Below, in pieces: positions 19,529 through 63,767 of a DNA stretch of 64,000 nucleotides (the first letter of the stretch is position 1; the number at the start of each line of letters is the position of its first letter). Made by a program: the position numbers and the translations under genes. The stretch comes from Eledone cirrhosa (taxonomy: Eukaryota): positions 26,660,001-26,724,000 of the forward strand of contig OZ024744.1 of NCBI GenBank assembly GCA_964016885.1, in the 5' to 3' direction. Below the pieces are notes generated by a model that was not told the origin of the DNA, ran no database searches, and worked only from the letters and a program-made list of their open reading frames with translations.

Positions 19529-22500
19529 TCTTGGTTGTCCATCGTAAACGATGATGACATCTTCTTTATTTTAGTTCCCGTCTGCCGTGGGCACGAAGGT
19601 GGCTATGGAGGCCGATCCATGACTTGCAGGTCCGGAGACAGTGGGCGCAGGGTAAGAGACCGGAGTCGCTTGGGGTAGCTGTTGATGTCCTTTCACGGGC
19701 CTCAATGAGCTCTGCGCGTCTCTTCTCATCAAAAGAGTCTTTGGCGCGTCTGGTAAGGGCGCGCCACTCATTCCTGTCCTGAGCATGGGACTCGAGTTGT
19801 TTTGGGGCGATTCCAGTGTTGTTGATGTTAGACTTCACGCAGTCTTTGAACCTCATGAGAGGCCTGCCCTGCTTTCGTTTCCCCGAACAGAGTTCCCCAT
19901 ACATCAATTGCTTCGGAAGCCTGGGATCGTCCATCCGGATGACAAGTCCCACCCATCGAAGTCGGCTCTTCAGTATCATAGCTTTGATACTGGTTGCCTC
20001 AGCCATGTCAAGAACTTTGAGGTTGGAGACCTTGTCCTGCCATCTGATGTTCATGATTGACCGCAGGCTGCGCATGTGGAACCGTTCCAGCTGCTTCAGG
20101 TGTCTTCTGTACAGGGTCCATGTCTCACATTCGTAGAGGATGCTGGGGAGAACAACGCCTCTGTACACCTTGAGCTTGGTGGACTGCTTGATGTTGTGCT
20201 GGTTCAGGACGCGTGTCATCAGGCGGTCAAGGGCTTGACGGGCCTTGCAGATCCTGGCGTTTATCTCCTTGTCGAGGCTTCCATCGCTGCTGATGACACT
20301 GCCGAGGTACTTGAAGTCGTCCACCGTCTTTAGCTGGGTGCCTCCGATGGAGATGGAAGGAGGGTGGGAGAGGGAGGCAGGTGCAGGATGGAACTGGACC
20401 TCAGTGTGGCCAAGGCTAATTGTGAGACCGAAGAGGCAGGAGGCCTCCGAGAACTTGTTGACGATGACTTGGAGGTCAGACTCCTTGTGGGCCATGTGGG
20501 CACAGTCGTCAGCAAAAAGTGCCTCCAGGACGATCCTCTGCACGGTCCTTGTCTTGGCCGTCAGGCGCCGCATATCAAACAGGGAGCCGTCTAGTCTGTA
20601 TTGCAGATATACTCCGTGCTCGAGATCCCCGACGGCATGATTCCGCACGCAGGTGAAGAACAGGTTGAAGAGGACGGAGCCAGCACGCATCCTTGCTTGA
20701 TTCCGAACGGCTCCGATACCTCTCTGCCCGAGCGTACCTTCCCGGTCATGTCGTCATGGAATTGCCGTATCAGGTTCACGAACTTGGTCGGGCATCCAAG
20801 CTTCGACAGGATCGACCAGAGGGTCTCCCTGTTGACAGTGTCGAAGGCCTTCGTAAAGTCTATGAAGACGGCAAAGTGGTCCATGTTCTGTTCAACACAC
20901 TTCTCCTGCACCTGGCAAACTGAGATCATGTCGATCGTGCTGCGGTTTGGGCGGAACCCACACTGGGCCTCAGGCAGGTTGTCATCGGAGATGTTGGCGA
21001 TGAGGCGGTTGAGCATGACTCGAGCCAGGACCTTCCCAGCGATGGACAGGAGAGAAATGCCCCGATGGTTGCCACAGTCAGTTTTGCTGCCTTTGTTGTT
21101 AAAATGCGAGACAACTGTGGCATCCATGAAGTCTTCTGGCACCTCTTCTTCCTCCAATATGCTGACGAGGAGGGTGTGGAAGGCCCCAGGGTAGCTGCAT
21201 CGACCGACTTGAAGATCTCGGCAGGAATCCCGTCCATCCCAGAGCCCTTTCCTGAGCTGGTCTGGTTGATTGCCTTCGTGACTGCATCCAACGTGGAGGG
21301 GGGGTCGAGGATGCCGACTACGGGTTTCTGTGGGACCTAGTCGAGGGGGCAGGGTCGACAGTGGAGGGCCCGTTGAGCAGGTTGCTGAAGTGCTCTCTAC
21401 ACCTCGAGTTGATGCTGCTCTTCTCCTTCAGCAGGGTCGAGCCGTCAACAGACAGGAGTGGTGACAGGCTTGGAGTGTCCATAGACGTCAAGGATGGTGC
21501 TGAAGAATATCTTCGAGTTCATTGTGTCAGCGTATCTCTCGACTTTTTCAGCCTTCTTTTCCCACCACACGTCCTACATTCTGCGTAGCGCTGCTTGGGT
21601 CTGCCTCTGGAGGTGCTTGAAGGGGTTGTACTTCGAGGTGGAGGATCTGTCATTCTGCCACTCAATGAAAGCCCTCTTCTTCTCGTTCAGGAGTTGTCTG
21701 ATGTGCTCATCATTTTCATCTAACCAGTGCTGGTAGACTTTCTTCCTCGGCCCGATGGTTGCCTTGGCTGACTCTGTCACCAGCGACCTGAATGGGTCCC
21801 ACTGTTGAGTTGGGTGTCGGTCAGTGGTCCATGGGCAGTCAGCCGGCCGTCCAGGTCTTCCGCGAACGCATCACGATGCTCTGGCTGCTTGAGTCGCGCG
21901 ACGTCGAAAGCTGGTCTACAGACTTTCGGAGTCTTGCGATGCGTCGGGGTGTTGTGCAGTGACAGGATGGTCCTGACAAGGCGATGGTCGGTCGAACACT
22001 CTGCACCACGCATGGCAATGGTGATTCTGACGTCACCGATGTCCCTCTTGCGGCATATGGCAAAGTCAATCAGATGTCACTGTTTGGATCTGGGGTTCAT
22101 CCATGTCATCTTGAACTTGTCTGCCTGGCGGAACAGTGTGCTGGTGATGGTGAGGTCGTTCTCGGTGCAGGAACTCAACAGTATGAGGCCGTTAGAGTTC
22201 AGCTTCCCTGTGCCGTGAGGTCCCAGTACGCCTCTCCAGTTGCTGCTGTCAGACCCGACTCTTGCGTTGAAGTCCCCCAGTAGGATGAGTTTATCGCTTG
22301 GGGGACGCCCTTCATGAGTTCCCCGTAGAAAGCGTCCTTTGCTTCATCGCTGCTGATGAGAGTGGGGGCGTACGCGCTGATGACTGTGACATACCGAGAT
22401 GGGTCGAGGGGGAAGCGGAACTTCATCAGCTGCTTACTCACAGGTGTTGGGAGGTCTGGTAGCTACTTGCAGAGTGAAGTCCTGATGGCCAGGCCTACCC

Positions 22501-26010: not shown

Positions 26011-26075
<65 letters not shown>

Positions 26076-26077
<2 letters not shown>

Positions 26078-26905
26078 CTCTGGTTCATCTGAATCATTGA
26101 GCACTTGCCTCACATCTTGGAGGTTGTTTTTCGTTATTTCGTGGGCCGAAATGCGAATCTCGATAATTTATGTTTGTATTTATCTCCAGACTCTAGCTAT
26201 TGACCAGTTAATATTCTTGATTTTTTAGTTGATTCTATTGACTGATGAATAGCTTATGTTAATTTTAACCCTTCTGTTGAGAACTCTATTCGATTTGTGA
26301 TGTTTTTGCATTCTTGCAAAAATATACACAACTGAATTTATTCGCCTGATATAGGGGCTGCCTCCCTTGCCGATCCCCACGTGAAGTCAGCAATAGTCAG
26401 TCCTTGTATTAACATTGAACTGAAACCTGTTGAGAAAGTGGCTTCCTTGTACAATCATCTTACCAGAAGCCTGACATTTTTTATGTAAGCGGACGGTACT
26501 TGATTTAGGAGCCGCAGAAACCCAAATACTGGATTTTACCAACCTTCCAGGGGTCCGGGTAAATTTTCAATACCCGAATTACTTGATCGTTTTTTGGGGC
26601 TATGCGAATGATTGTTTAACCATCGTCTCATTGATTTTGTCCTTTAACGTTTGTTATAGCTCTGGTTCATCTGAATCATTGAGCACTTGCCTCACATCTC
26701 GGATTTTTCTTTTTCGTTATTTCGTGGGCCGAAATGCGAATCTCGATAATTTATGTTTGTATATATATATACATATTTTGGCCTTTAACGTTTGTTATAG
26801 CTCTGGTTCATCTGAATCATTGAGCACTTTCCACACATCTCGGAGGTTGTTTTTCGTTATTTCGTGGGCCGAAATGCGATTCTCGATAATTTATGTTTGT
26901 ATTTA
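26076..26905. mobile_element. Three direct copies of a ~105-125-bp repeat around a possible PLE remnant
   Basis: AGCTCTGGTTCATCTGAATCATTGAGCAC... at 26076, 26658 and 26799, with a diverged inverted copy near 17137-17243; the minus strand at about 26190-26340 reads HKSNRVLNRRVKINISYSS, similar to the Naiad linker. Confidence 0.55.
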
Positions 26906-26951
26906 AATATATATATATATATATACGTTCAACCATCTGGCAGAAAGGTAT

Positions 26952-26994
26952 ACGGTGCTGACGATAGTTAATAAGCTTGAAACTAGTACATGGT
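26952..26994 (+). ncRNA. Minimal type I hammerhead
   Basis: ACGGUG-CUGACGA-UAGUUAAUAAGCUU-GAAA-CUAG-UA-CAUGGU. Confidence 0.75.
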
Positions 26995-27488
26995 TCCTGT
27001 GTCAGTGTTGAACAAAAAAGGTGACGTGGTTGCCTAAACATTATAATGAATGTTCGGTAAACTGATACGTGCATATATATATGTGTGCCTGTATGTATAT
27101 ATATACATGCTACTGTACGTCTGTATACATATATGTATGTACGTATACATACATACTTACATTTAAGTAAGTGCCGTACTAAGAGTGAGAAATGAAATTT
27201 CGTTTCATTCTATTCCATTTATATATATATCGAAAAACCGAAATTTTAAATTTCATTCTCACTCTTAGTACGGCTGATACTTAAATATAAGTATGTATAC
27301 GTACATACATATATGTATACAGACGTACAGTAGTATATATATACATACATGCACACATATATATATGTACGTATGGGTTTACCGAACATTTATTATAATG
27401 CTCAGTTTTTTTGTAAACAAACATCCCTAATTAAGCCGTACAGTGTTCGGCAACCATCGTCGTCCTTTTGTTCATTACTGACAAAGGA

Positions 27489-27531
27489 ACGATGTACTAG
27501 TTTCTAGCTCATTAGCTGTCATCAGCACCGT
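27489..27531 (-). ncRNA. Minimal type I hammerhead, intact
   Basis: ACGGUG-CUGAUGA-C-AGCU-AAUG-AGCU-A-GAAA-CUAG-UA-CAUCGU. Confidence 0.87.
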
Positions 27532-27903
27532 ATACCTTTCTGTCAGATGATTGAACGTTTGAAAGTATATACTTTCCTTATGCATATTAACGGCTGAGCA
27601 GCCCAATTTGCATATCGAGTGAGTTAATCGGCCGGGCGCACCGAAAACGATAAATGGAAAAAATGAAATTTGAAATTTCATTTCTCACTCTTAGTACGGC
27701 TGTTACTTAAATATAAGTATGTATACGTATATACATACATGTATACAGACGTACAGTAGTATGAATATATATATACATACATTTATCGTTTTCCGTACGC
27801 CCGGCCGACTTACTCACTCGATATGCAAATTAGGCTGCTCAGCCGTAATATGCATAAGGAAAGTATATACTTTCAAACGTTCAATCGACTGACAGGAAGG
27901 TAT

Positions 27904-27946
27904 ACGGTGCTGATGACAGCTAATAAGCTAGAAACTAGTTCATCGT
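27904..27946 (+). ncRNA. Minimal type I hammerhead
   Basis: ACGGUG-CUGAUGA-C-AGCU-AAUA-AGCU-A-GAAA-CUAG-UU-CAUCGU. Confidence 0.85.
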
Positions 27947-28149
27947 TCCTTTGTCAGTGTTGAACAAAAGGGCAACGATGGTTGCCGAACACTGTACGGC
28001 TAATAATTCGGACTGTTTGTTTACAAACACACCGAGCATTATAATAAATGTTCAGTAAACCCATACATACATGTATATATGTGTGCATGTATGTATATAT
28101 ATACATACTACTGTACGTCTGTATACATATATGAATGTACGTATACATA

Positions 28150-28222
<73 letters not shown>

Positions 28223-29079
28223 GTATATATATATATAATATGTATATATATGTGTGTGTGCGTGCACGCGCGTGTGTGTTTATATACCAAGGTTTACAAA
28301 TGAGCACTATGGGTCTTTCAATGTAAGGTGGCTAAGTCTAAAATTGTATAGTACTTACTTGTAAGTCGTCGACTATGTAAAGACGCCTTATGATGCTTCT
28401 CACAAGACTAAGTTCTCTCTATATCTTTGTATATTGTAACTGTTACAACCACGCCTGCACACACACGCACACGCGCATACATACATGTGTATATGAATGT
28501 GCGAAGACAAGTGTCATACTGTTGGCCGCACCATTATTAGTTCGACGGTTCAATACTTAGACGGTGGGCATTGTGTTCTTGAACACAATACTTTATTTCA
28601 AGTTGCTTTTGCAACCAGAAGTTGCGGGAGATTACATCAGCAATTGAAAGACCAGTAGAAACATTCTTTCCTTAGCCACAGCTGAGATCCTCTGAGTGCA
28701 CCGGTGGAACTCCAGTGTAACAAGACTCACGACTTATTACTCATACATATATGTATGTATATATTTTTTAATATCATATTACATTTTTTTTCATGCATCT
28801 TTTTATGTTGATGCTTATGACAACATTTGTATTCCTAAAGGTATGTAGAACAACAATAAATATTGAGGTATGGTCTGCTGTTATACATTGAAACGTTTGT
28901 AGAGTAAAGTTCTGTTCACATGCCAACACATTCTACTGACATGGCTATAAAATTGAGGCTTGTTTGCATAATTGCAAACCAATCGAATGTTATTATTAAT
29001 ATTCCAAAAACTCAGATTACATTTATTGTATACAGCCATTTAGAGCGAAAATGTTCTATATATATATATATATATATAT

Positions 29080-33113: not shown

Positions 33114-36100
33114 CTACAGAAGTATATTCAGAGTGGTCCCGTTCACTCGGACCATTCTCGCTACATTCACCCACCTTTCAACAAACTTGCTAGAAGGCAG
33201 CACTTGCGTCTCCACCCTGATTTTCCTCTTCAAGTGAAACTTGAAAAAGTTAATTAGGGATTCGCCGAAGAAGAAAGTGTCTGTCTTTAACCCTTTCAAC
33301 CTTGTCCACCACACAATCTCTTTCGCCATGGCCACCAGGCAGATGAAAACCGCCTGCCCTTCCTCCTCGAAAGGAAGACGGCGAGACCATCTGCTCAATG
33401 GACTCAGTCGATAACCGGATCAGTCCTACACGAAACAAATGTTCGACATAGTTCCACAAGTCAGCAATGCTCGGGCACTGAACGAGTGCGTGCACGACGG
33501 TTTCGACACTCTGCGCGCATCTCGGACAGACTCGGCTGACGGCACTTCCGTGCCGCTAGAGCTTATCTCGAACCGGTAACGCTCCACAGTAGCACAGCCA
33601 GGCCAGGGATTTTTGCAAGTTATCCATAGGCCTTGGGCTGAAATTCTTCGGAAGAGAGCAAACAGCTGATCTTCTTCGATGCCCAGGATGTCTCCAAGAA
33701 CGCCGTCGCACTTCCTCTCCACTAGTCCTCTATAGAACGCCAATGTGGTGATCCACCGATACTGGTGCCCAGCTGGCAGAGGGCAGTGAGCACCTGGAGA
33801 CATTCCAGTTTCCAAGCGCTATCCCTCGGTCTTTTCCTGACCCAGGACTGCAGCTCCGTCAAGGAGACGAGCTGTGGGAAAACGTGCCTGGCGAACGGCG
33901 ACCACACCTGTTTACCGTCAAGGAAGCACCAGAGTTTTCGCAGCCTCAGCGCATGTTTGCGCATCATCAGCTATGGCTTGCCCAGTCCTCCACGCAACGG
34001 GTGTTAACAGCAGATAGATCGTCTGACCATGGGAGCGCGTCCCTTCCACAAAAAGCGGAAGAGGAGGCGCTCCATTTTGGTGAGAGTTGTGCCGGGGCAG
34101 AGGACGACGGTGAGGTGGTAGCAGATGACGGATGCGATGTACGCATTCGCCACCTCCACCCGGCCTTTCAGGGACAGCTTCCTCTCGGCCCATTTCTGGG
34201 TGAGGGAGGCCACCTAGCTCCAGTTTGTCTCCATCTGGAAGACCGGTCCGAACCAGACCACAAGCACTTTAACCGGTCCGTCCGTCCAACGCAGCACGAC
34301 GCTATCGGACGGCATGGACTTGCCTCTCCAGGTGCCGAGCTGCAAGCCCACCGACTTTTCCTGGTTTATCTTTGCTCCTGTCACCGCTTCGTATTCCTTG
34401 AGAGCGGTGCCGAGCATCTGGATGTGTCTGGTGTTCGACACCACAACGGTGACGATGTCGGCGAAAGCCGACTCGGATTTCACGCATCCTAGTTCGCGTG
34501 GGACGCACCTCATCGCCCCCAGTTTGTGCAGTAACGGCTCGAGAGCCATTACGTACACGAGGGACGAGAGGGGGCAACCCTGACGGACCGAGCGCCTGAT
34601 GCTGAACGGCTGCGACAGGTGTCCGTTCACCTTCACAACTGAGCATATGTCGCTGTAAATCGCAACGTTACAACCCCTGAAAACGGGCCCGGAACCGGCT
34701 GCCGCGTGGACCGCTGCCAGGTACCAATGGTCGACCCTATCGAATGCTTTGGATTGATCCAAGTTGATCGGGGCCCCACCCGTGCCAGGTTCCTTAACCA
34801 CACTCTCTATGATGTATCGCATCAGGTGGCGGTTGTAGGGATCTGTGTATGTATCTGTCCGGGAGGCGCATATCCCGGCCTCTCCCACCAGACCCTCGAC
34901 GACAAGCGCCAACCTCGTTGCAAATACATTGGCCAAAATCTTGAACTCTGCGTTTAGCAGAGTTATGGACCTGAAATTATTGATAACAACCCCCTTGTTC
35001 GGGTCTTTTCTCAGCAGCGCCACTGCTCCCCAGCTCACAAAACTGGGAATGCTCCCGTTCTGCTGCCAGTTGAAGTAGATGTCTGCCAAGAGGTCACCGA
35101 ACAAGTCTGGCATAAATGCATAAAGCTCGTAGGGCACACCATCCAAACTTGGCGATTTACCCCTCGTACAGTTAGCCACCGCTTTCTGTATTTCACCGGC
35201 TCTTATTGGCTTTTCGCAATACTGTGCTGCGGTCGTCGAGAGCCGAGGCAGTCCGTCGAGGTATGCACTGAAGTTCATACCCGATCCGACCGCCGCCGCT
35301 CCCGAACAGTTCAGCAAACTGCTGCTGAAAAGCCTCACACATCTGCTCAGGTTCGAGCAACACGCACCCGTTTTGGTCAGACAAAGACCGAAATGTGGCT
35401 TTGTTGCCACATCGCGCGTCTGCCACCCGGGCACATTGGACGGCTTTCGTCCCCTCGTGTTTCAGAGCACGCGCTTTAGCTCTGACAACGGAGCCTTCGT
35501 ATTTTGCGTTGAAGAATTGGTCGAGTGCCAATCTCGCCGCAAGTACTTCGGTTGCAATGCCTGTTCTAAACGACTCTTCTAGTTTTCTGTCTAGCTCTCC
35601 CTCTACTCTATTTTCCTCTATCACTAGTCCTTTGCTAAACCTAATCGACTCTACTTTAATTGCCCTTTTCAGGGCAAACCACCAACTGTTGTTGACGACC
35701 GCTCCCGTCAACGCCCGCTTAACTAATACGCTAATCCGGTCTCTGTAGGCTTTGCGCTCCGGGAAAGACGCGTTAAGCTTCCAGTAACCAGGTCCTTGTC
35801 TATGAAGTCTGTCTATGTCGATCTCACAGATCACAAATTTGTGTCTGTGTAGTCGACTATTTTAAATTGTGGACAACCTATACTAGCCTTATCTAGTTCC
35901 CTGCAGAATACCCTATCGAGATACGATCTGGATGACCCGATGCGGTTTGTCCATGTCCACATTGGCACATTCGGGGGATCCAGTCGATACCTGTCAGCCA
36001 GTTCAAAACGTCTGAGCAGGTTGGTGAGGCTCTTGCACCCTCCTCGCCTATCTACTAGCCCCACACAATCCCAGCGTGCATCCAAGATACCGTTCCAGTC

Positions 36101-40726: not shown

Positions 40727-40978
40727 GGTCTAATGATTACATATCGCAAATTCCAGGAAACCCGCGTATAGGAGAAATACAAAAGATAGTACTAATGGGA
40801 ACTGCCCATATACTAAGTAAGATCCTGTCAATATAAGTACATCACAAGTCTAAACACTAAGGATGCATGTGTGAATATGTGTGTTCTTTCTTGAACATGG
40901 CGGACCTTGTTGTCTCTTGAGGTCACTGGTTGTGACTTGGTGATAACTCGTATGAACATAAAGCAAGATAAATGCAAC
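40725..40978 (+). mobile_element. R4/Dong-clade 3' end, family A copy 2, very short
   Basis: Near-identical to 39325-39577. Confidence 0.9.
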
Positions 40979-41002
40979 TATAATAATAATAATAATAATA
41001 AT

Positions 41003-42192
41003 AGGAAAGAAGGAGGACGTGGGTTAATCCAGTTAGACATTGCGTTGAAAACTGCAACAATTGGATTATCTACATATCTAAGGGAATCACATGATTGGAT
41101 GATCAAACTCGTTTTGAAACACGAAAGCATCAAAAGATCATATTCCATTACAAACGATGCACAAAGATACAGTAATGGACTACACATTTCAGAAGTCCCA
41201 TTTACTGCTGAAATGGAAAACACAGAAAAAGCAAAGCAGGTAAAAGTAACTGCAAAGAAAGAACTGCTACAGAAACTAGCTAAGAAATGGCAAGAAAAGC
41301 CTCTGTATGGAAAATACCCAGAGCGAGCTAACAATCCTGATGTTGACAAAACTTTAACCCATCAGTGGTTGGCATCCTCTGGACTGAAATCGGAGACTGA
41401 AGGACTGATTATATCAGCACAAGATCAGTGTCTGCCAACAAAAAATTACCAAGCCAACATAATAACAAATGGATGCAGCCCATTATGCCGTGTATGCAAA
41501 AAACAACAAGAGACCATTGACCATATAATTTCAATGTGCAGTCCTATTGCTCCAACCGAATACCTAAACAGGCATGACAGAGCTGCACAATACATACATT
41601 GGATAATGTGTAAGCATTTTGACCTGCCCCATCAAAAGAATTGGTGGGAGCATCAACCACCTCCCATACTTGAAAAAGATCACATCTCAATCTTGTGGAA
41701 CTTTAGCATCCAAACAGACCGAAAAATAGATGCAAATAGACCTGATATAATATTGAAGGACTTTAAAAAGAGGGTATGCCAGCTAATTGATATGTCTGTT
41801 CCAATAGACAAGAATGTATCTATAAAAACATTTGAAAAATTGAGCAAGTATAAGGACCTGGAGATAGAAATTGGAAAAATGTGGAAATTGAGAACTAAAA
41901 CAATACCAGTGGTTGTAGGCGCTCTGGGAATGATACCTAAGGGGTCTAATGATTACTTATCGCAAATCCCAGGAAACCCGCGTATAGGAGAAATACAAAA
42001 GATAGTACTAATGGGAACTGCCCATATACTAAGGAAGATCCTGTCAATATAAGTACATCACAAGTCTAAACACTAAAGATGCATGTGTGAGTATGTGTTC
42101 TTTCTTGAACATGTCGGACCTTGTTGTCTCATGAGGTCACTGGTTGTGACTTGGTGATAACTCGTATGAACATAAAGCAAGATAAATGCAAC
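41003..42192 (+). mobile_element. R4/Dong-clade 3' end, family A copy 3, longest
   Basis: Open frame RKEGGRGL...WQEKPLYGKY...SETEGLIISAQDQ...RLE domain ending at 42052. Confidence 0.93.
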
Positions 42193-42229: not shown

Positions 42230-45200
42230 TTTTTTTATTAACCACAAGGGTTTACATAAAGTAGACATTAAGGACAGCACAGGACAATACAGGACGGTAC
42301 AAATGGGCATTTCTGCGTGTAAAAAAAACAGAGTATGTAATAAAATAACAAAGAAAGATTCCCCAATAGGGGGGAGACTTCCGAGGGACATTTATGGAGA
42401 AAGCTCATTAAAAGAGCACAGTGACCCTGACCATAATGGTTTCTTTATTGGCCACAAGTGTTAACATGAAGAAAAACATTAGTGACGGCACAGAATGGTA
42501 CAGGAAGATACAAAGTGGGTTTTGGCCGTGTAAAAAAGATTACAAGAAAATAGAAAAGTGTAAAAGCAAATCAAAAAAATTCAAACAACAAAATTTCCTA
42601 AATAAGACGGAAACCTGCTAGGGTCACTCAAAGGGAAAACCACACAAAAGACCACGGCGACCCTGACCACCGGGCAAGCGCCCTCTCTCAGTTCTCGCAT
42701 TCCTCAGTCTACAGGCGCATACATAGAACAGGCCCGTTGCTCGAACCAGACTTGCCACTTTCACCCACCACCGTTCAACAAACTTACTAGACGGCAGCAC
42801 TTGCCTTTCCACCCTGATTTTCCTCTTCAAGTGAAACTTGAAAAAGTTAATCAAGGATTCGCCAAAAAGGAAAGTGTCCGTCTTCAATCATTTCAACCTT
42901 GTCCACCACACAATCTCTTTCACCATGGCCACCAGGCAGATGAAAACTGCCTGCCTTTCCTCCTCTTTAAAGGAGGATGGCGGGGCTATATGCACAATAG
43001 ACTCAGTCGATAACCAGATCCGTCCTACACAACGATTTCTTTGCTCTGCGCGCTTCTTGGACAGGTTCGGCTGACGGCACTTCCGGTTCTATACAGTTTA
43101 TCTCGAACCCCCAACGCTCCGCGGGAGCACTGCCTGGAGAGGGATTTCTGGAGGTTGTCAATAAGCTCCGAGCTGAAAGAGAGCAAACAGCTGATCGTCT
43201 TCGACGCCCAGGGTCTCCCCGAGAACATCGTCGCACTTTCCCTCCACTAGCCCTCTATAGAACGCCGAGATGGATGTTCCACCGATATTAGTGCCCAGCT
43301 AGTAGAAGGCTTGGAGACATTCCATCTTCCAAGCGTTATCCCCCGGTATGTCCTGATCCAGGACTGCAGCTCCGTCAAGGTGACGGGCTGGGGAAAAACA
43401 CGTCTGGCAAAGGTGACCACACCTGTTCACCGTCAAGGAAGGACCAGGGATGTTGCAGTCTCCACGCATGTTTGCACGTCATCATCCACGGCATGCCCAG
43501 CCCTCCACGCAACGGTTGTTGACAGCAGATAGATCGTCTGACCACGGGAGCACGTCCCTTACATAAAAAGCGGAAGAGGAGGGGCTCCATTTTTGTCAGA
43601 GTTGGGTCAGGGCAAGGCACAGCGGTTAGGCAGATGACGGATGCGATGAACGCATTCGGCACCTCCACCCGACCTTTCAAGGACAACCTCCTCTCGGCCC
43701 ATTTCTGGGTGAGAGAGGCCACCCTGCTTGTCACCGCGTTCCAGCTTTTCTCCATCTGGATGTCCGGATCGAACCAGACCACGAGCAATTTAACCGGTCC
43801 TTCCGTCTAGCGCTCCACGACGCTGTCAGACGACATGGACTTGCCTCTCCAGGTGCCAAGCTGCAAGCCCACCGACTTTTCCTCGTTTAACACTGCTTCA
43901 TATTCCTTGAGAGCGGTGCCAAGCGTCTGGACATGTCTGGTGCTCTACACTACCACGGATCTCCCGCATCCCAGTTCGACGCCTCTCATCGCCTCAAATT
44001 TGTGCGGTAATGGCTCGTGGTCCAATGTGTACAAGAGGGACGAGAGGGGACAGCCCTGGTGGACTGAGCGCATGATGATGAACGGCTGTGACAGGTGACC
44101 GCTCACCCTCGCAACTGAGCAGATGTAGCTGTCCATCGAAGCGATTATACCCCTGAAAACAGACCCTATCAAATGCCTTAGATTGATCCAAGTTGATCAG
44201 AGCCCCACCCGTGGAATGTTGCTTAGCCATCCTCTCTATGATGTATCGCATGAGGGGGAGGTTGTCGTGGATGGATCTATCCGGAATGGCACATGTCTGC
44301 GCCTCTCCCACCAGATGACTGGCACCAATCTCGTTGCAAACACCTTGGCCAAAATCATGAACTCATGCGTTTAACAGAGTTATGATGCCTGAAGTTGTCT
44401 ATAACGTCCCCCTTGTACGGGTCTTTTCTTAGCAGCGCCACCGCTCCCCGGCTCACAAAACTGGGAATGATCCCGTTCTGCTGACAGTTGCACTAGACAT
44501 CCGCCAAGAGTTCGCCGAACAAGCCTGGCATGTACGCATAAATTCATAAGGCAGACAATCCAAACCTGGCGATTTACCCCTGATGCAATCAGACATCGCT
44601 TCCCGTATTTCACCTGCTGTTATCGGCTTTTAGCAATACTGCGCTGCGGTCGTCGAGAGCTGTGGCAGTCCGTCGAGGTAGGCACTGAAGTTCATTCTCA
44701 GATCTGGCCTGCCACCTCTCCCAAACAATTGAGCAAAGTGCTGCTGAAAAGCCTCACACATCTGCTCGGGTTCGAGTAACATCTGCCCGTTTTGGTCTGG
44801 AAAGGACCGAATTGTGGCTTTGTTGCAACGTCGCGCCTCCACCACCCGGGCCCATTAGACAGCTTTTGTATCCTCTTGTCTAAGAGTACGACCTCTAGCT
44901 CTGACAACGCAGCCTTCATGCTTTGCGTTGAAGAATCGGTCGAGTGCCAATCTCGCCGCAAGCACGTCGGTCTGATGCCTGTCCTAAACGCCTCTTCTAG
45001 CTTTCTAACTAGCTCTCCCTCTACTCTATTTTCCTCTATCACTATCCTTTGCTAAACCTTATCGATTCTACTCTAATTGCCCTTTTCAGAGTAAACCACC
45101 ACCTGTTGTTGACGATCGCACCCGTCAACGCCCGCTTAACTAATTCGCTTATCCGGTCTCTGTAAGCTTTGCGCACCGGGAAGACGTGTTCAGCTTCCAG

Positions 45201-47200
45201 TAACTGTGCCCTTGCCTATGGAGTCTATCTAAGTCGACTTCACAGATCCTATATTTGTGGTCCGTGTAGTCGACTACTTTAAATTGTGGACAACCTAGGC
45301 TAACCTTATCTGTTTCCCTACAGAATACTCTATCTAAATACGATCTGGATGACCCGATGCGGTTTGCCCATATCCACATTGGCACATTCGGATAATCCAG
45401 TCTATACCTGTCAGACAGTTCAAAACGTCTGAGCAGGTTGCTGAGGCTTTTACATCCTTCTCCCTTATTTACTAGCCGCACATAATCCCAGCGGGCATCT
45501 ACGATAGCGTTCCAATCACCCACTAACACTAAAGAGCGGGACGTTCCATAAAAGGTCTCTAGACGTGTGAAGAAATCTGGCCGTCCTGCCCCTGTTGGGG
45601 CGTAGACGGCTACCACCCTGGGATGTCTGTGTGCTACTTTATATGTTCTATAAATTCTTTATTTATAAAGTTTATGGCTGTGTAACGTTTTTTTGGTGCT
45701 TGGTTTTCTTGTTGCTGCTGTTGGGTGTATGTGCTTTGTTGTGTTTGCGATGTTGGTGTTTGTGGGGATGCTGGTGGTGGTGTGGTTATTGCTTGTGATG
45801 ATATTTGTGATGGTGATGGTGGTGGCGTAGCTTCGAGTCGTCTTGCAGCCTTTTCCCCTCTCTGTCCTCTCTTTTGGAGGGCGAAGCTAAGGGGTTCTAT
45901 CTTTTTTGTGGCAGACCGTTTGCCACACCACTCCCACCCCAGACTCTATGTCGGATTCCGTGGCGTCTGGGAGGGGTATGTGCTCCACGGCTGTTGGTGG
46001 TGGTAGTGGAGGCCTCTCCGGCGATTTTGTTGCTGGTGCAGCTACTGCAAATGTAGCTACTGGTGTTGCCTCCACTGCTGCCGCTGTTTTAGTTGCCCAT
46101 GCCTTGGTATGTGTGCCACGGATGTAGCCCTTCTACTCACCGTGGAAGGGTCTGCCGCCCCTGTTTCCTGCCCTTCTCCTGGTAGCAGCGGACCAGGCGT
46201 CGAGAAAAGGGGGGTCTTCTTCTCTGCTGTCTTTTAAGGGCAAATGTCCCTGAGGTGACCCTTTGACCCACAGCGATAGCACTTTGGACGCCTTCCTTCC
46301 ACACTTATACGGAGTTGGTCTCCTTCTTCGAGGTCTATAATGTCCGGGATAGCTTCGATCCACTCCTGGTCAGTTTGTATTAGCATTTGCATTGCTATAC
46401 CAGACCAGTTCTCCCTGCCTATCCCCTGTACTTGCAGCGTGGTCGTCCTTTCCTCGATTCCAACAAGGACAGACGTGACCAGCCAAGGTATGGGCACATC
46501 GGGTGGGACCTGGGTCACTTTGACCATTACAATCTTCTGCTCATACTAGGAGGGCACCAAAACTATCTCCTCACTCTTTAGGGTTACCAAAGAGTGAGAC
46601 TTCGCCTCATGAGGTGTGGCAAACAGTACGTCTACTGTGGCATACTTTCTGCCTCGGGTGATGTGGGTTTTTTGTGCCCAAACGCTCATTAAGGCCTTTT
46701 GTATTTGAGCCTCCGTGGATCTCTTCACCCGATGTGATATTTTGCTTACAGTGCTGTAAGTCACCGTCAGTAACTGCTGGTCCTTGATCAAATCGGTTGG
46801 AGGTTTCAGGGAGACTCGATTGGCATTTCTCGTCACCTTGGCCCTTTCGACTGCCAACTCCTCCTCTGTGACTAACACTGTTTCTATATTTTGGGCGACA
46901 CCTGCAAAAGAAGTGGCCCCTTTTTCAGCGGCACCACTATTGCTGCAGCTACTGCTGCTACTGGTCTTGGTGGTGCTGAGATCGTTGTTACTGTTATTGA
47001 TGTTGTTTTTGTCGATACTGTTGCTGCTGTTATTGTTGTTGTGGCTGTTGTTATTGTCATTGTTATTGTCTTTCTCGACCTTATCGCTGTTATTTTTGTT
47101 ATTTTTGTTGTTGCTGTTGTTATTGATGATGTTGTTGTTGTTGTTGTTGTTATTGTTAGTGTTGTTAGTGTTAGTACTATTTGGTATTTTTTAATCTGAA
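42228..47200 (-). mobile_element. Tx1/L1-clade LINE copy 2 with internal deletions, plus an extra 3' end at 42228-42432
   Basis: Colinear homology with copy 1; ORF1 knuckle CYRCGSKGHLRDIC; lacks the ORF2 N-terminus (junction near 45620) and the YADD region. Confidence 0.9.
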
Positions 47201-62236: not shown

Positions 62237-62320
<84 letters not shown>

Positions 62321-62483
62321 GAATTAGGATTTAGCTTCATGCATAGCTGTATACAGATATGTATTGGAATTTCGTATTTCTAAAGAAATACGGCATGTTT
62401 ATAGGTAAACATTTAGAAAGCCGTAGCTATGCAAACACCAGGGCTAACGCCCTCTGGTGGTGTCCAGCAGAAGCAAGGGGACA

Positions 62484-62527
62484 ATCGTCGATGCATTTCG
62501 AACTTAAGTGGTTTTCATCAGGACGAT
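62484..62527 (-). ncRNA. Minimal type I hammerhead, intact core
   Basis: AUCGUC-CUGAUGA-AAACCACUUAAGUUC-GAAA-UGCA-UC-GACGAU. Confidence 0.85.
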
Positions 62528-62777
62528 CGCCCCACCCTTGCGACTGCTAGACTTGAAAACATGGGATAATATGTAGTTTTCTCGTCTGTGTAAATGAGAT
62601 GATTAATCTCATTTGCATATGAAGCTACTTAAGTTGGATCAACAGGACGATCCCTCCCACTCTTAAGCCAACTTATGCCGCTTCATATGTACATGAGATT
62701 AATCACCCTATTTACACAGACGAGAAAACTATATATTCTCACCTGTTTTCAAGTCTAGCAGTCGCAAGGGTGTGGGG

Positions 62778-62821
62778 ATCGTCCTGATGAAAACCAGTTA
62801 AGATCGAATTACATCGACGAT
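62778..62821 (+). ncRNA. Decayed hammerhead in the opposite arm
   Basis: AUCGUC-CUGAUGA-...-GAAU-UACA-UC-GACGAU, with A15.1 mutated. Confidence 0.65.
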
Positions 62822-63767
62822 TGTCGCTCTTGCTTCTGTTGGACACGACCAGAGGGCGTTAGCCCAGGTGTTTGCATAGCTGCGGCTTTCTAAATGTTTA
62901 CCTATAAACATACCGTATTTCTTTAGAATTACGAAATTCCAATAGACACATATATATGTAGGTTCTTTGCATATCTCGTTTGAATTTCTTTTTCAACTAG
63001 CCTATATTGAAATACCTTCTTAATATTCTAAATCCTATATCGTACACCGAAATATCCAATCGTTCATCACTATCTATTCAATTGCTCATTACCTACCTAA
63101 CAGTTGAAATTGCCCTCCGGTGGGTGATATCAGCTACGTTGGGAAACCCAGATATAAATGAAGCCCATGGTAAAAGTAAGCGAGACGTTTTACTGCTCAG
63201 GTACGCAGGTTCATTTGTCTCTGAAAATAATCAATCAGTAACCATCAATCCCTTGTGCTGAAGACTATAGCTATGTCGGACACTTTGTAAAAGCCTTAAA
63301 AATGTCAAGGACAAAATTCCTTTTACTGAAATAAATGAAATATTTTTTGTCAAGAAAGACTCTATGAGCAAAGTGTTTCCTGGCGAAGGTTTAACTTTTG
63401 AGGTTTCATCTTGTTTGTTATTGTTGGTTTTTATTGTATTTTAATTTGATTTGTTGTTTTAAACATTATTAATCTTTAAAACAGGACGTAATTAATGCTT
63501 GCTGAATTCCCTAGACATTAATCTGTTGAACTATTATTTTTCGTGTTAGAGCAGGGTCAGAGTGCAGAGAAACATCTTGGAGAAAAAAGGTGGAAGGGAG
63601 GGGTGCAAATATATATGTATATATGTATGGCTGGATGGATGGATAAATGTATATACGGTCTCATAACGGCATTTCTTGGGTATTTTAAGCCTGGCCTGAG
63701 AACAGTATATTTCTTCCAGAGAAAGATAGAAAGTGAAAGATAGAGGAAATGAGAAAGAAGAAGAATT

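Follow-up and report, generated by a model that had tools for sequence, protein, structure and literature searches.

The 64,000-nt window of Eledone cirrhosa DNA analysed here, which sits in a 3.0-Gb animal genome, contains a locus with three minimal type I hammerhead motifs in the order +/-/+. This raises two questions: how the alternating copies came to lie side by side, and how a repeat of this kind is copied into the genome at all.

Three hammerhead copies at one locus

All three hammerheads share the CUGANGA and GAAA boxes; stem I has 6 bp and stem II 4 bp, and stem III consists of the palindromic CUAG closed by the single pair A15.1-U16.1 (Table 1). The initial annotation, made from the letters of the window, placed three minimal hammerheads in alternating orientation here, and all three are where it put them. 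Its description of the stems (6-bp I, 4-bp II, CUAG III) is right in outline, but it overlooked two mismatches, one in the basal pair of stem II (U.U in copy 1; C.A in both other copies) and one in stem I of copy 1 (CAUGGU). Because of the latter, a strict motif scan recovers only copies 2 and 3. The nested inverted repeats that it reported are real (156 nt at 94%, 101 nt at 91% and 106 nt at 85%). The direct repeat at an offset of 426 nt is also present, and the middle copy does exceed one unit, spanning 536 nt of a 428-nt unit; two head-to-tail hammerheads are absent at the locus itself. The element has a GC content of 0.35, no ORF of at least 150 aa overlaps it, and Rfam at gathering thresholds returned 0 matches.

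Table 1. Features of the three-copy locus in window coordinates; A and B are the two recurrent 3' ends of the repeat described below
Feature	Position	Strand	Description	Remark
(TA)n tract	26907..26925	.	left edge of copy 1, likely target	sequence
Copy 1	26925..27222	+	single-armed, 5'-truncated, subfamily of the large C2 array, 53-nt internal deletion, long end B	
Hammerhead 1	26952..26994	+	CUGACGA core at 26958, GUA, predicted cut after 26988, one stem I mismatch	
Short (TA)n	27220..27230	.	common to the B ends of copies 1 and 2; tail-to-tail junction	sequence
Copy 2	27230..27782	-	inverted arm of two-armed insertion, ~1.3 units, long end B (diverged)	
426-nt-offset repeat	27233..27360	-	downstream pass (RNA sense)	other pass 27659-27786
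Hammerhead 2	27489..27531	-	CUGAUGA, core 27519-27525 (at 27525), GUA, predicted cut between 27495 and 27494	
Head-to-head arm junction	27780..27782	.	short overlap; the only TA spacer is copy 2's own TA-rich segment	
Copy 3	27780..28156	+	forward arm, 381 nt of unit, short end A	
Hammerhead 3	27904..27946	+	CUGAUGA, core at 27910, GUU, predicted cut after 27940	
(TA)n tract	28152..28251	.	fused to end A	

Several other repeats occur in the window. Adjoining the element on its left is a TA-bounded repeat (26073-26916) with a 110-nt end segment present three times (26073, 26655 and 26796; a 141-bp tandem); its minus-strand end fuses into (TA)n, and it may be another TA-targeting element. A second hammerhead repeat, unrelated to the first (62300-62960; core at 62521 on the minus strand, palindromic UGCA stem III), has the same layout: its forward arm runs out into (CA)n(TA)n and is accompanied by a partial arm in inverse orientation. 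Matches to RT, zf-RVT and AP-endonuclease domains at 20591-21427, 34214-35461, 40895-42052 and 45149-45658 are probably LINE remnants. Elsewhere in the genome, other type I hammerheads lie near L160, L166 and L066:1240-1295; their stem III is long (CAGUUCUAGUCCUG-like) and the basal pair of their stem II is U.U.

Repeat family, ribozyme and predicted fold

An exact 35-mer across the cut site has 16,400 matches in the genome and its reversed control has 0, which excludes a chance origin of the motif. The unit is a non-coding retrozyme family of at least 16,400 units with a ~430-base repeat. Its majority sequence, derived from one sample, is 428 nt long, and 58 dispersed whole units range from 414 to 556 nt. 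When 195 dispersed units were clustered, they formed seven clusters with at least six members and seven singletons; the median divergence from the cluster majority ranges from 0.3% to 4.3%, and some subfamilies are therefore very young. Units also occur in a head-to-tail array on C2 (G000:C2:382983500-383040000; L066-L070, L256), where they are 442 nt long and ~4.9% apart. We scored 107 units in 48 kb of this array, which continues for at least 8 kb further and so covers at least 56 kb. Best-match spacings of 3.1 and 6.2 kb hint at a 7-unit higher-order repeat, and the array begins abruptly beside a hairpin-like inverted repeat.

To judge from an alignment of 121 loci, the hammerhead is under sequence constraint, with its core intact across subfamilies. 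None of the 23 columns of the core, stem II and palindrome varies at 5% or more, compared with 5 of 8 free columns (p = 3e-4), counts that come from related sequences and not from independent events. Stem I alternates between G.U (78), A-U (33) and U.G (5). The circular unit has a predicted folding energy of -140.7 kcal/mol, compared with -88.4 +/- 5.3 for 40 shuffles (z ~ -10), and a consensus fold of 13 sequences has two-sided changes in 8 of 117 pairs. In the predicted circle the long TA tracts are paired and sites A and B are largely unpaired, which may explain why priming avoids the best TA matches. The single-motif hammerhead fold is not the minimum-energy one and, with U.U or C.A instead of G-C at 10.1-11.1, cutting may be weak. 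Alignments of several copies (L028, L040, L100 and copy 1 of the window) break or jump just after an A-run at unit position ~29; this position is possibly a hairpin-skipping hotspot, or the pattern may partly be a subfamily difference.

Insertion ends and the history of the locus

Ends were sampled at matches to an exact 36-mer that lies downstream of the hammerhead. Of its 882 places the first 100 listed were considered, and 85 of these, minus one duplicate, gave 84 runs, all on one contig and only from subfamilies bearing the chosen 36-mer. The 3' ends fall at site A in 38 runs, at site B in 36 and elsewhere in 10. Counted from the cut site, A lies at unit position ~219 and B at ~273, which places them ~54 nt apart, and 70 of the 74 fixed ends run into (TA)4 or more, compared with 215 of 1680 background windows (12.8%). 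Circularly permuted start points, proposed as a check in the initial annotation, are thus not what the sample contains: the 3' ends are fixed and only the 5' ends scatter round the unit.

An inverted arm is attached head to head in 49 of the 84 runs. At 171 loci we identified 114 head-to-head pairs, 37 of which have at least one unclassable end. The outer ends of the remaining 77, typed by alignment, are one A and one B in 75 cases and BB in 2, with no AA pair (p ~2e-20). A motif-based count of ends (11 AA and 4 mixed of 15) was discarded because it called internal positions A in plainly B-ended loci (e.g. L086, L113). Given that 75 of 77 pairs have one end of each kind, the inversions likely arise by separate priming of both DNA strands, and not by the strand switching to which they had been attributed at the outset. 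The start of the + arm is unrelated to the 3' end of the inverted arm (6 of 49 within 20 nt, 4.7 expected), and + arm starts do not cluster at the inverted arm's 5' start. LINE-1-like twin priming, in which the + arm begins where the inverted arm was primed, was likewise rejected (6 of 49), although the present locus happens to fit. A search for the empty sites of 73 insertions, the ends of which lie in (TA)n, yielded none that was usable and one uninformative match.

Coding Penelope-like elements in the same genome provide a direct comparison. GIY-YIG domains are abundant (10,596 candidates, 150 scored). In all three proteins tested an RT is followed by a C-terminal GIY-YIG domain, and most of the protein sequences inspected include a cysteine linker, CxxxxCxxC; we assign these elements to the Neptune type by this domain order and linker rather than by a tree. 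In the available part of PMC8557442 the cysteine linker is tied to Neptune elements and microsatellite targets, and the Penelope tail is often found at one end only. The 3' regions of the coding elements contain minimal hammerhead-like motifs with a palindromic stem III, followed by TA. Two coding families have a short and a long TA-fused end, with one of each in 3 of 3 two-armed insertions. A Penelope-like protein has been found to start at two adjacent internal RNA sites, producing a genomic tail unique to these elements, and to cut and extend both DNA strands (PMC11167929). Because its two fixed ends, one per end of the insertion, match both the coding elements here and those of PMC11167929 and PMC8557442, we conclude that the repeat carries a Penelope footprint; 5' truncation, partial tandems, an inverted 5'-truncated copy and (TA)n bias, which belong to that footprint, are all present in it.

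At one locus (L162:1190-1860) a retrozyme copy lies inside the TA tail of a coding Neptune-type element, which shows that targets are shared and that elements nest. Long open Neptune-type ORFs of 938 and 844 codons occur in a young family (L151:3009-5822 on the minus strand and L152:1488-4019 on the plus strand). The hammerhead-like motif of this family begins UUGAAAA instead of CUGANGA, and that of another family begins UUGAUAA; both starts resemble the U3-A8 core variant in the available text of PMC4209133. No coding element sharing the unit's sequence was found in 45 GIY-YIG loci (of many thousand) or in 188 tblastn loci, nor did a relaxed pattern reveal a coding partner in 20 of 36 matches examined. 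The partner enzyme is therefore one that we infer.

With these rules the three copies in the window can be read as two insertions, likely stacked in one TA tract. Copies 2 (B) and 3 (A) likely represent the usual tail-out pair from one insertion, and copy 1 (B) a separate single-armed insertion. Copy 1 differs from the majority of its 12 best relatives at 4 positions, belongs to the subfamily of the C2 array and has ~75% gapped identity to copy 2. TA flanks it at either end, and its junction with copy 2 is tail to tail, a configuration found once among 13 switches, the other 12 being tail-out. For these reasons the +/-/+ structure is probably not the product of a single event, as had been suggested at first. 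A single reverse transcript that ran round a circle and switched strands twice would account for the alternating orientation, the over-unit length of the middle copy and the small extra flips seen at some inner junctions. However, the separate subfamily of copy 1, the agreement of the outer ends with the A/B rule, the lack of a fold-back register at the inner junctions and the rarity of tail-to-tail switches largely refute this origin, and we consider it very improbable.

Another alternative, to which we give roughly a one-in-a-handful chance, is that all three copies are independent single-armed insertions, copy 3 having inserted into a TA-rich stretch within a copy 2 that was already present. 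The closest genomic relatives are 93-94% identical to copy 2 and 97-98% identical to copy 3, the differences from the majority of the 12 best matches number 15 and 4, respectively, and the junction falls inside copy 2's TA-rich segment. Yet the contrast narrows to 8 versus 3 when only differences present in at most 1 of 12 relatives are counted, copy 2 has no leftover beyond the right end of copy 3, and the pair obeys the family rule, with B outward on the left and A outward on the right. Copies 2 and 3 differ by 6.5% and have different subfamily alleles; therefore, they derive from two RNAs or, less likely, from two events. A-to-I editing was considered for the divergence of copy 2 and rejected for want of a strand bias (A>G 40, T>C 34).

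Template, mechanism and known systems

Runs are longer than one unit in 40 of 84 cases and longer than two in none, arms of at least three units exist at other loci, and 68 of the 84 runs read through the hammerhead. Genome-wide, ~63 5' ends lie at the cut site, compared with ~40 at a control position located 10 nt upstream of it (design-corrected p = 0.28); the counts were sorted by hand, and 19 of 82 and 16 of 56 rows, visually judged to be minor indels or duplications within intact copies, were left out. Over three positions this amounts to ~0.7% of units at the cut site and ~0.5% at the control. A pile-up of 5' ends at the cut site, which looked suggestive in 6 of 84 runs, was rejected (8 of 133 ends, 5.0 expected, p = 0.13; no genome-wide excess). 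As 5' ends are not in excess there, cut linear monomers are not the main template, and the initial proposal that greater-than-unit copies fit reverse transcription on circular or multimeric RNA agrees with both observations.

Among 35 whole units, 27 are nearest to their own insertion, 5 tie and 3 lose; 2 of the 3 losses come from a locus with two separate insertions. Six units spread over both arms of a single insertion show 0 differences across 185 nt, and other insertions have their own haplotype and unit length (422, 466 and 508 nt). In 8 insertions same-arm and cross-arm divergence are equal (p = 0.81), which argues that multi-unit arms were written at insertion; arms of several units with one haplotype and age fit rolling round a circle. 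The arms fall in different clusters in 4 of 20 pairs, so that one RNA molecule per insertion is not universal; rare variants common to both arms occur in 1 of 20 pairs, too few to inform. Four of the longest runs (646-695 nt) begin within 8 nt of the cut site, a hint that some templates were cleaved linear dimers. In addition, two variants alternate along five consecutive units at L201:1186-3606 (one site reads A, G, A, G, G, and the first and third units are 484 nt long), an observation that speaks against a monomeric circle and suggests a dimeric template or later duplication. Taken together, we think it somewhat probable that the template is an RNA circle.

Penelope-type insertion could instead proceed from an uncleaved linear multimer of tandem copies, with a hammerhead that rarely cuts and no need of a circle, a possibility that we rate as unlikely but well worth keeping in view. 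In vitro, uncleaved RNA is the main substrate of the Penelope-like protein and the hammerhead is dispensable (PMC11167929), which favours this template. Tandem sources exist (an array of more than 100 units, and at least two exact hammerhead matches in 14 of 78 arms), stem II is mismatched at its base, and the L201 units alternate. Against it, units lie 4.9% apart in the large array examined but are uniform in young multi-unit arms, and haplotypes are specific to single insertions; unit number could not rise on a linear multimer without template jumps or DNA-level duplication; and the catalytic core is kept across subfamilies. We find it hard to give any credence to a repeat, satellite or MITE-like, that spread at the DNA level by recombination or a DNA transposase and retains a relic hammerhead, even though a large satellite-like array exists, the inverted outer ends look like terminal repeats, and TA is a common transposon target. 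The 3' ends are fixed while 5' truncation is scattered, a pattern that refutes DNA-level spread as the main route; moreover, the outer ends are unequal (A versus B), units and arms are of equal age, and the RNA structure is conserved (the two-sided changes given above). A DNA-level route likely accounts for the later growth of the large array.

The reading that we favour, and hold to be reasonably probable, is that of a hammerhead repeat of the animal retrozyme kind, copied into (TA)n by a Penelope-like enzyme that would use two fixed sites of an RNA, likely a circle, to prime both strands. Its anatomy, copy number, fixed ends, one-of-each rule, cut-site read-through and the same footprint in coding Penelope-like elements are observed directly. 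The steps could be as follows. Tandem copies would be transcribed, and their hammerheads would pair via the palindromic CUAG and cut out unit-length RNA, which would be ligated into a circle of rod and hairpins. A Neptune-type RT/GIY-YIG protein, a predicted dimer, would nick both strands of a (TA)n tract; synthesis would begin at site A from one DNA end and at site B from the other, the two sites being unpaired in the predicted fold. The cDNAs might then extend for differing lengths, passing the hammerhead and in some cases circling the template repeatedly, before the two join head to head to give a tail-out inverted pair, or a single arm survives. More tentatively, and with slightly more doubt than belief, we propose that a Penelope-like dimer reverse-transcribes a ribozyme-made circle in rolling-circle fashion: each half would prime one strand at its own site and both would roll on the same circle, writing multi-unit mirror arms in one event.

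Retrozymes are an established class, and this locus is an unremarkable representative of a large family. Mobilisation of animal retrozymes from circular RNA by Penelope enzymes has been proposed since 2014 and 2020 on the basis of co-occurrence and similarity, and the available parts of the published accounts leave the insertion mechanism open. Here, a protein-free repeat bears the tail signature described as unique to Penelope-like elements, and the near-strict rule of one site per strand constrains how these elements form inversions. The footprint renders the long-proposed copying of RNA circles testable; as some members are very young, direct tests of the circle, the ribozyme and the start sites are feasible. 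If the rolling-circle reading is true, the still-active subfamilies, which have identical units across loci, would offer a ready substrate and a strict A/B rule for reconstitution. In the openly accessible texts searched, we found no account of such a footprint in a retrozyme, nor of a cephalopod retrozyme.

The unit resembles animal non-LTR retrozymes, as far as the available text of PMC7229834 and 10.64898/2026.07.22.740005 describes them, in being short (a few hundred bases) and non-coding and in containing a type I hammerhead, in occurring as tandem arrays and dispersed copies of low GC, and in having a strongly self-paired predicted circle and co-occurring with Penelope-like elements. The same sources, in the parts seen, propose Penelope-type mobilisation from co-occurrence and pLTR similarity; pLTR homology to a coding element was not found in the limited samples compared here. 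Likewise, the weak helix III with a palindromic tetraloop and the U.U at the base of helix II recall the axolotl families, whose hammerheads cut poorly alone and well as dimers according to the portion of PMC7229834 available. The two fixed starts, TA targeting and near-strict one-of-each tail-out pairs set the repeat apart from published retrozyme accounts, which in their accessible parts describe no insertion footprint.

The repeat shares 5' truncation, partial tandems and an inverted 5'-truncated copy with Neptune-type EN+ Penelope-like elements (PMC8557442, available portion), as well as an optional tail, often at one end only, and microsatellite targets (same portion, and PMC11167929). 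Two internal initiation sites and extension of both strands are further likenesses to EN+ elements (PMC11167929). Unlike these, the repeat has no ORF, RT and GIY-YIG being absent, and it is not an autonomous member. Its tail is also longer (~54 nt, versus 30-40 in Penelope-like elements), the repeat unit is the entire element, and several units may follow one another in an arm. The accessible text of PMC4209133 describes opposite-strand pairs of hammerheads 100-700 bp apart in Penelope-like elements and proposes more-than-unit copying of a circle. Its minimal hammerheads, like those here, have a palindromic stem III suited to dimeric folding; they have G10.1-C11.1 and a short stem I, whereas the motifs in our repeat have U.U or C.A at 10.1-11.1 and a stem I of 6 bp, which the predicted fold prolongs considerably.
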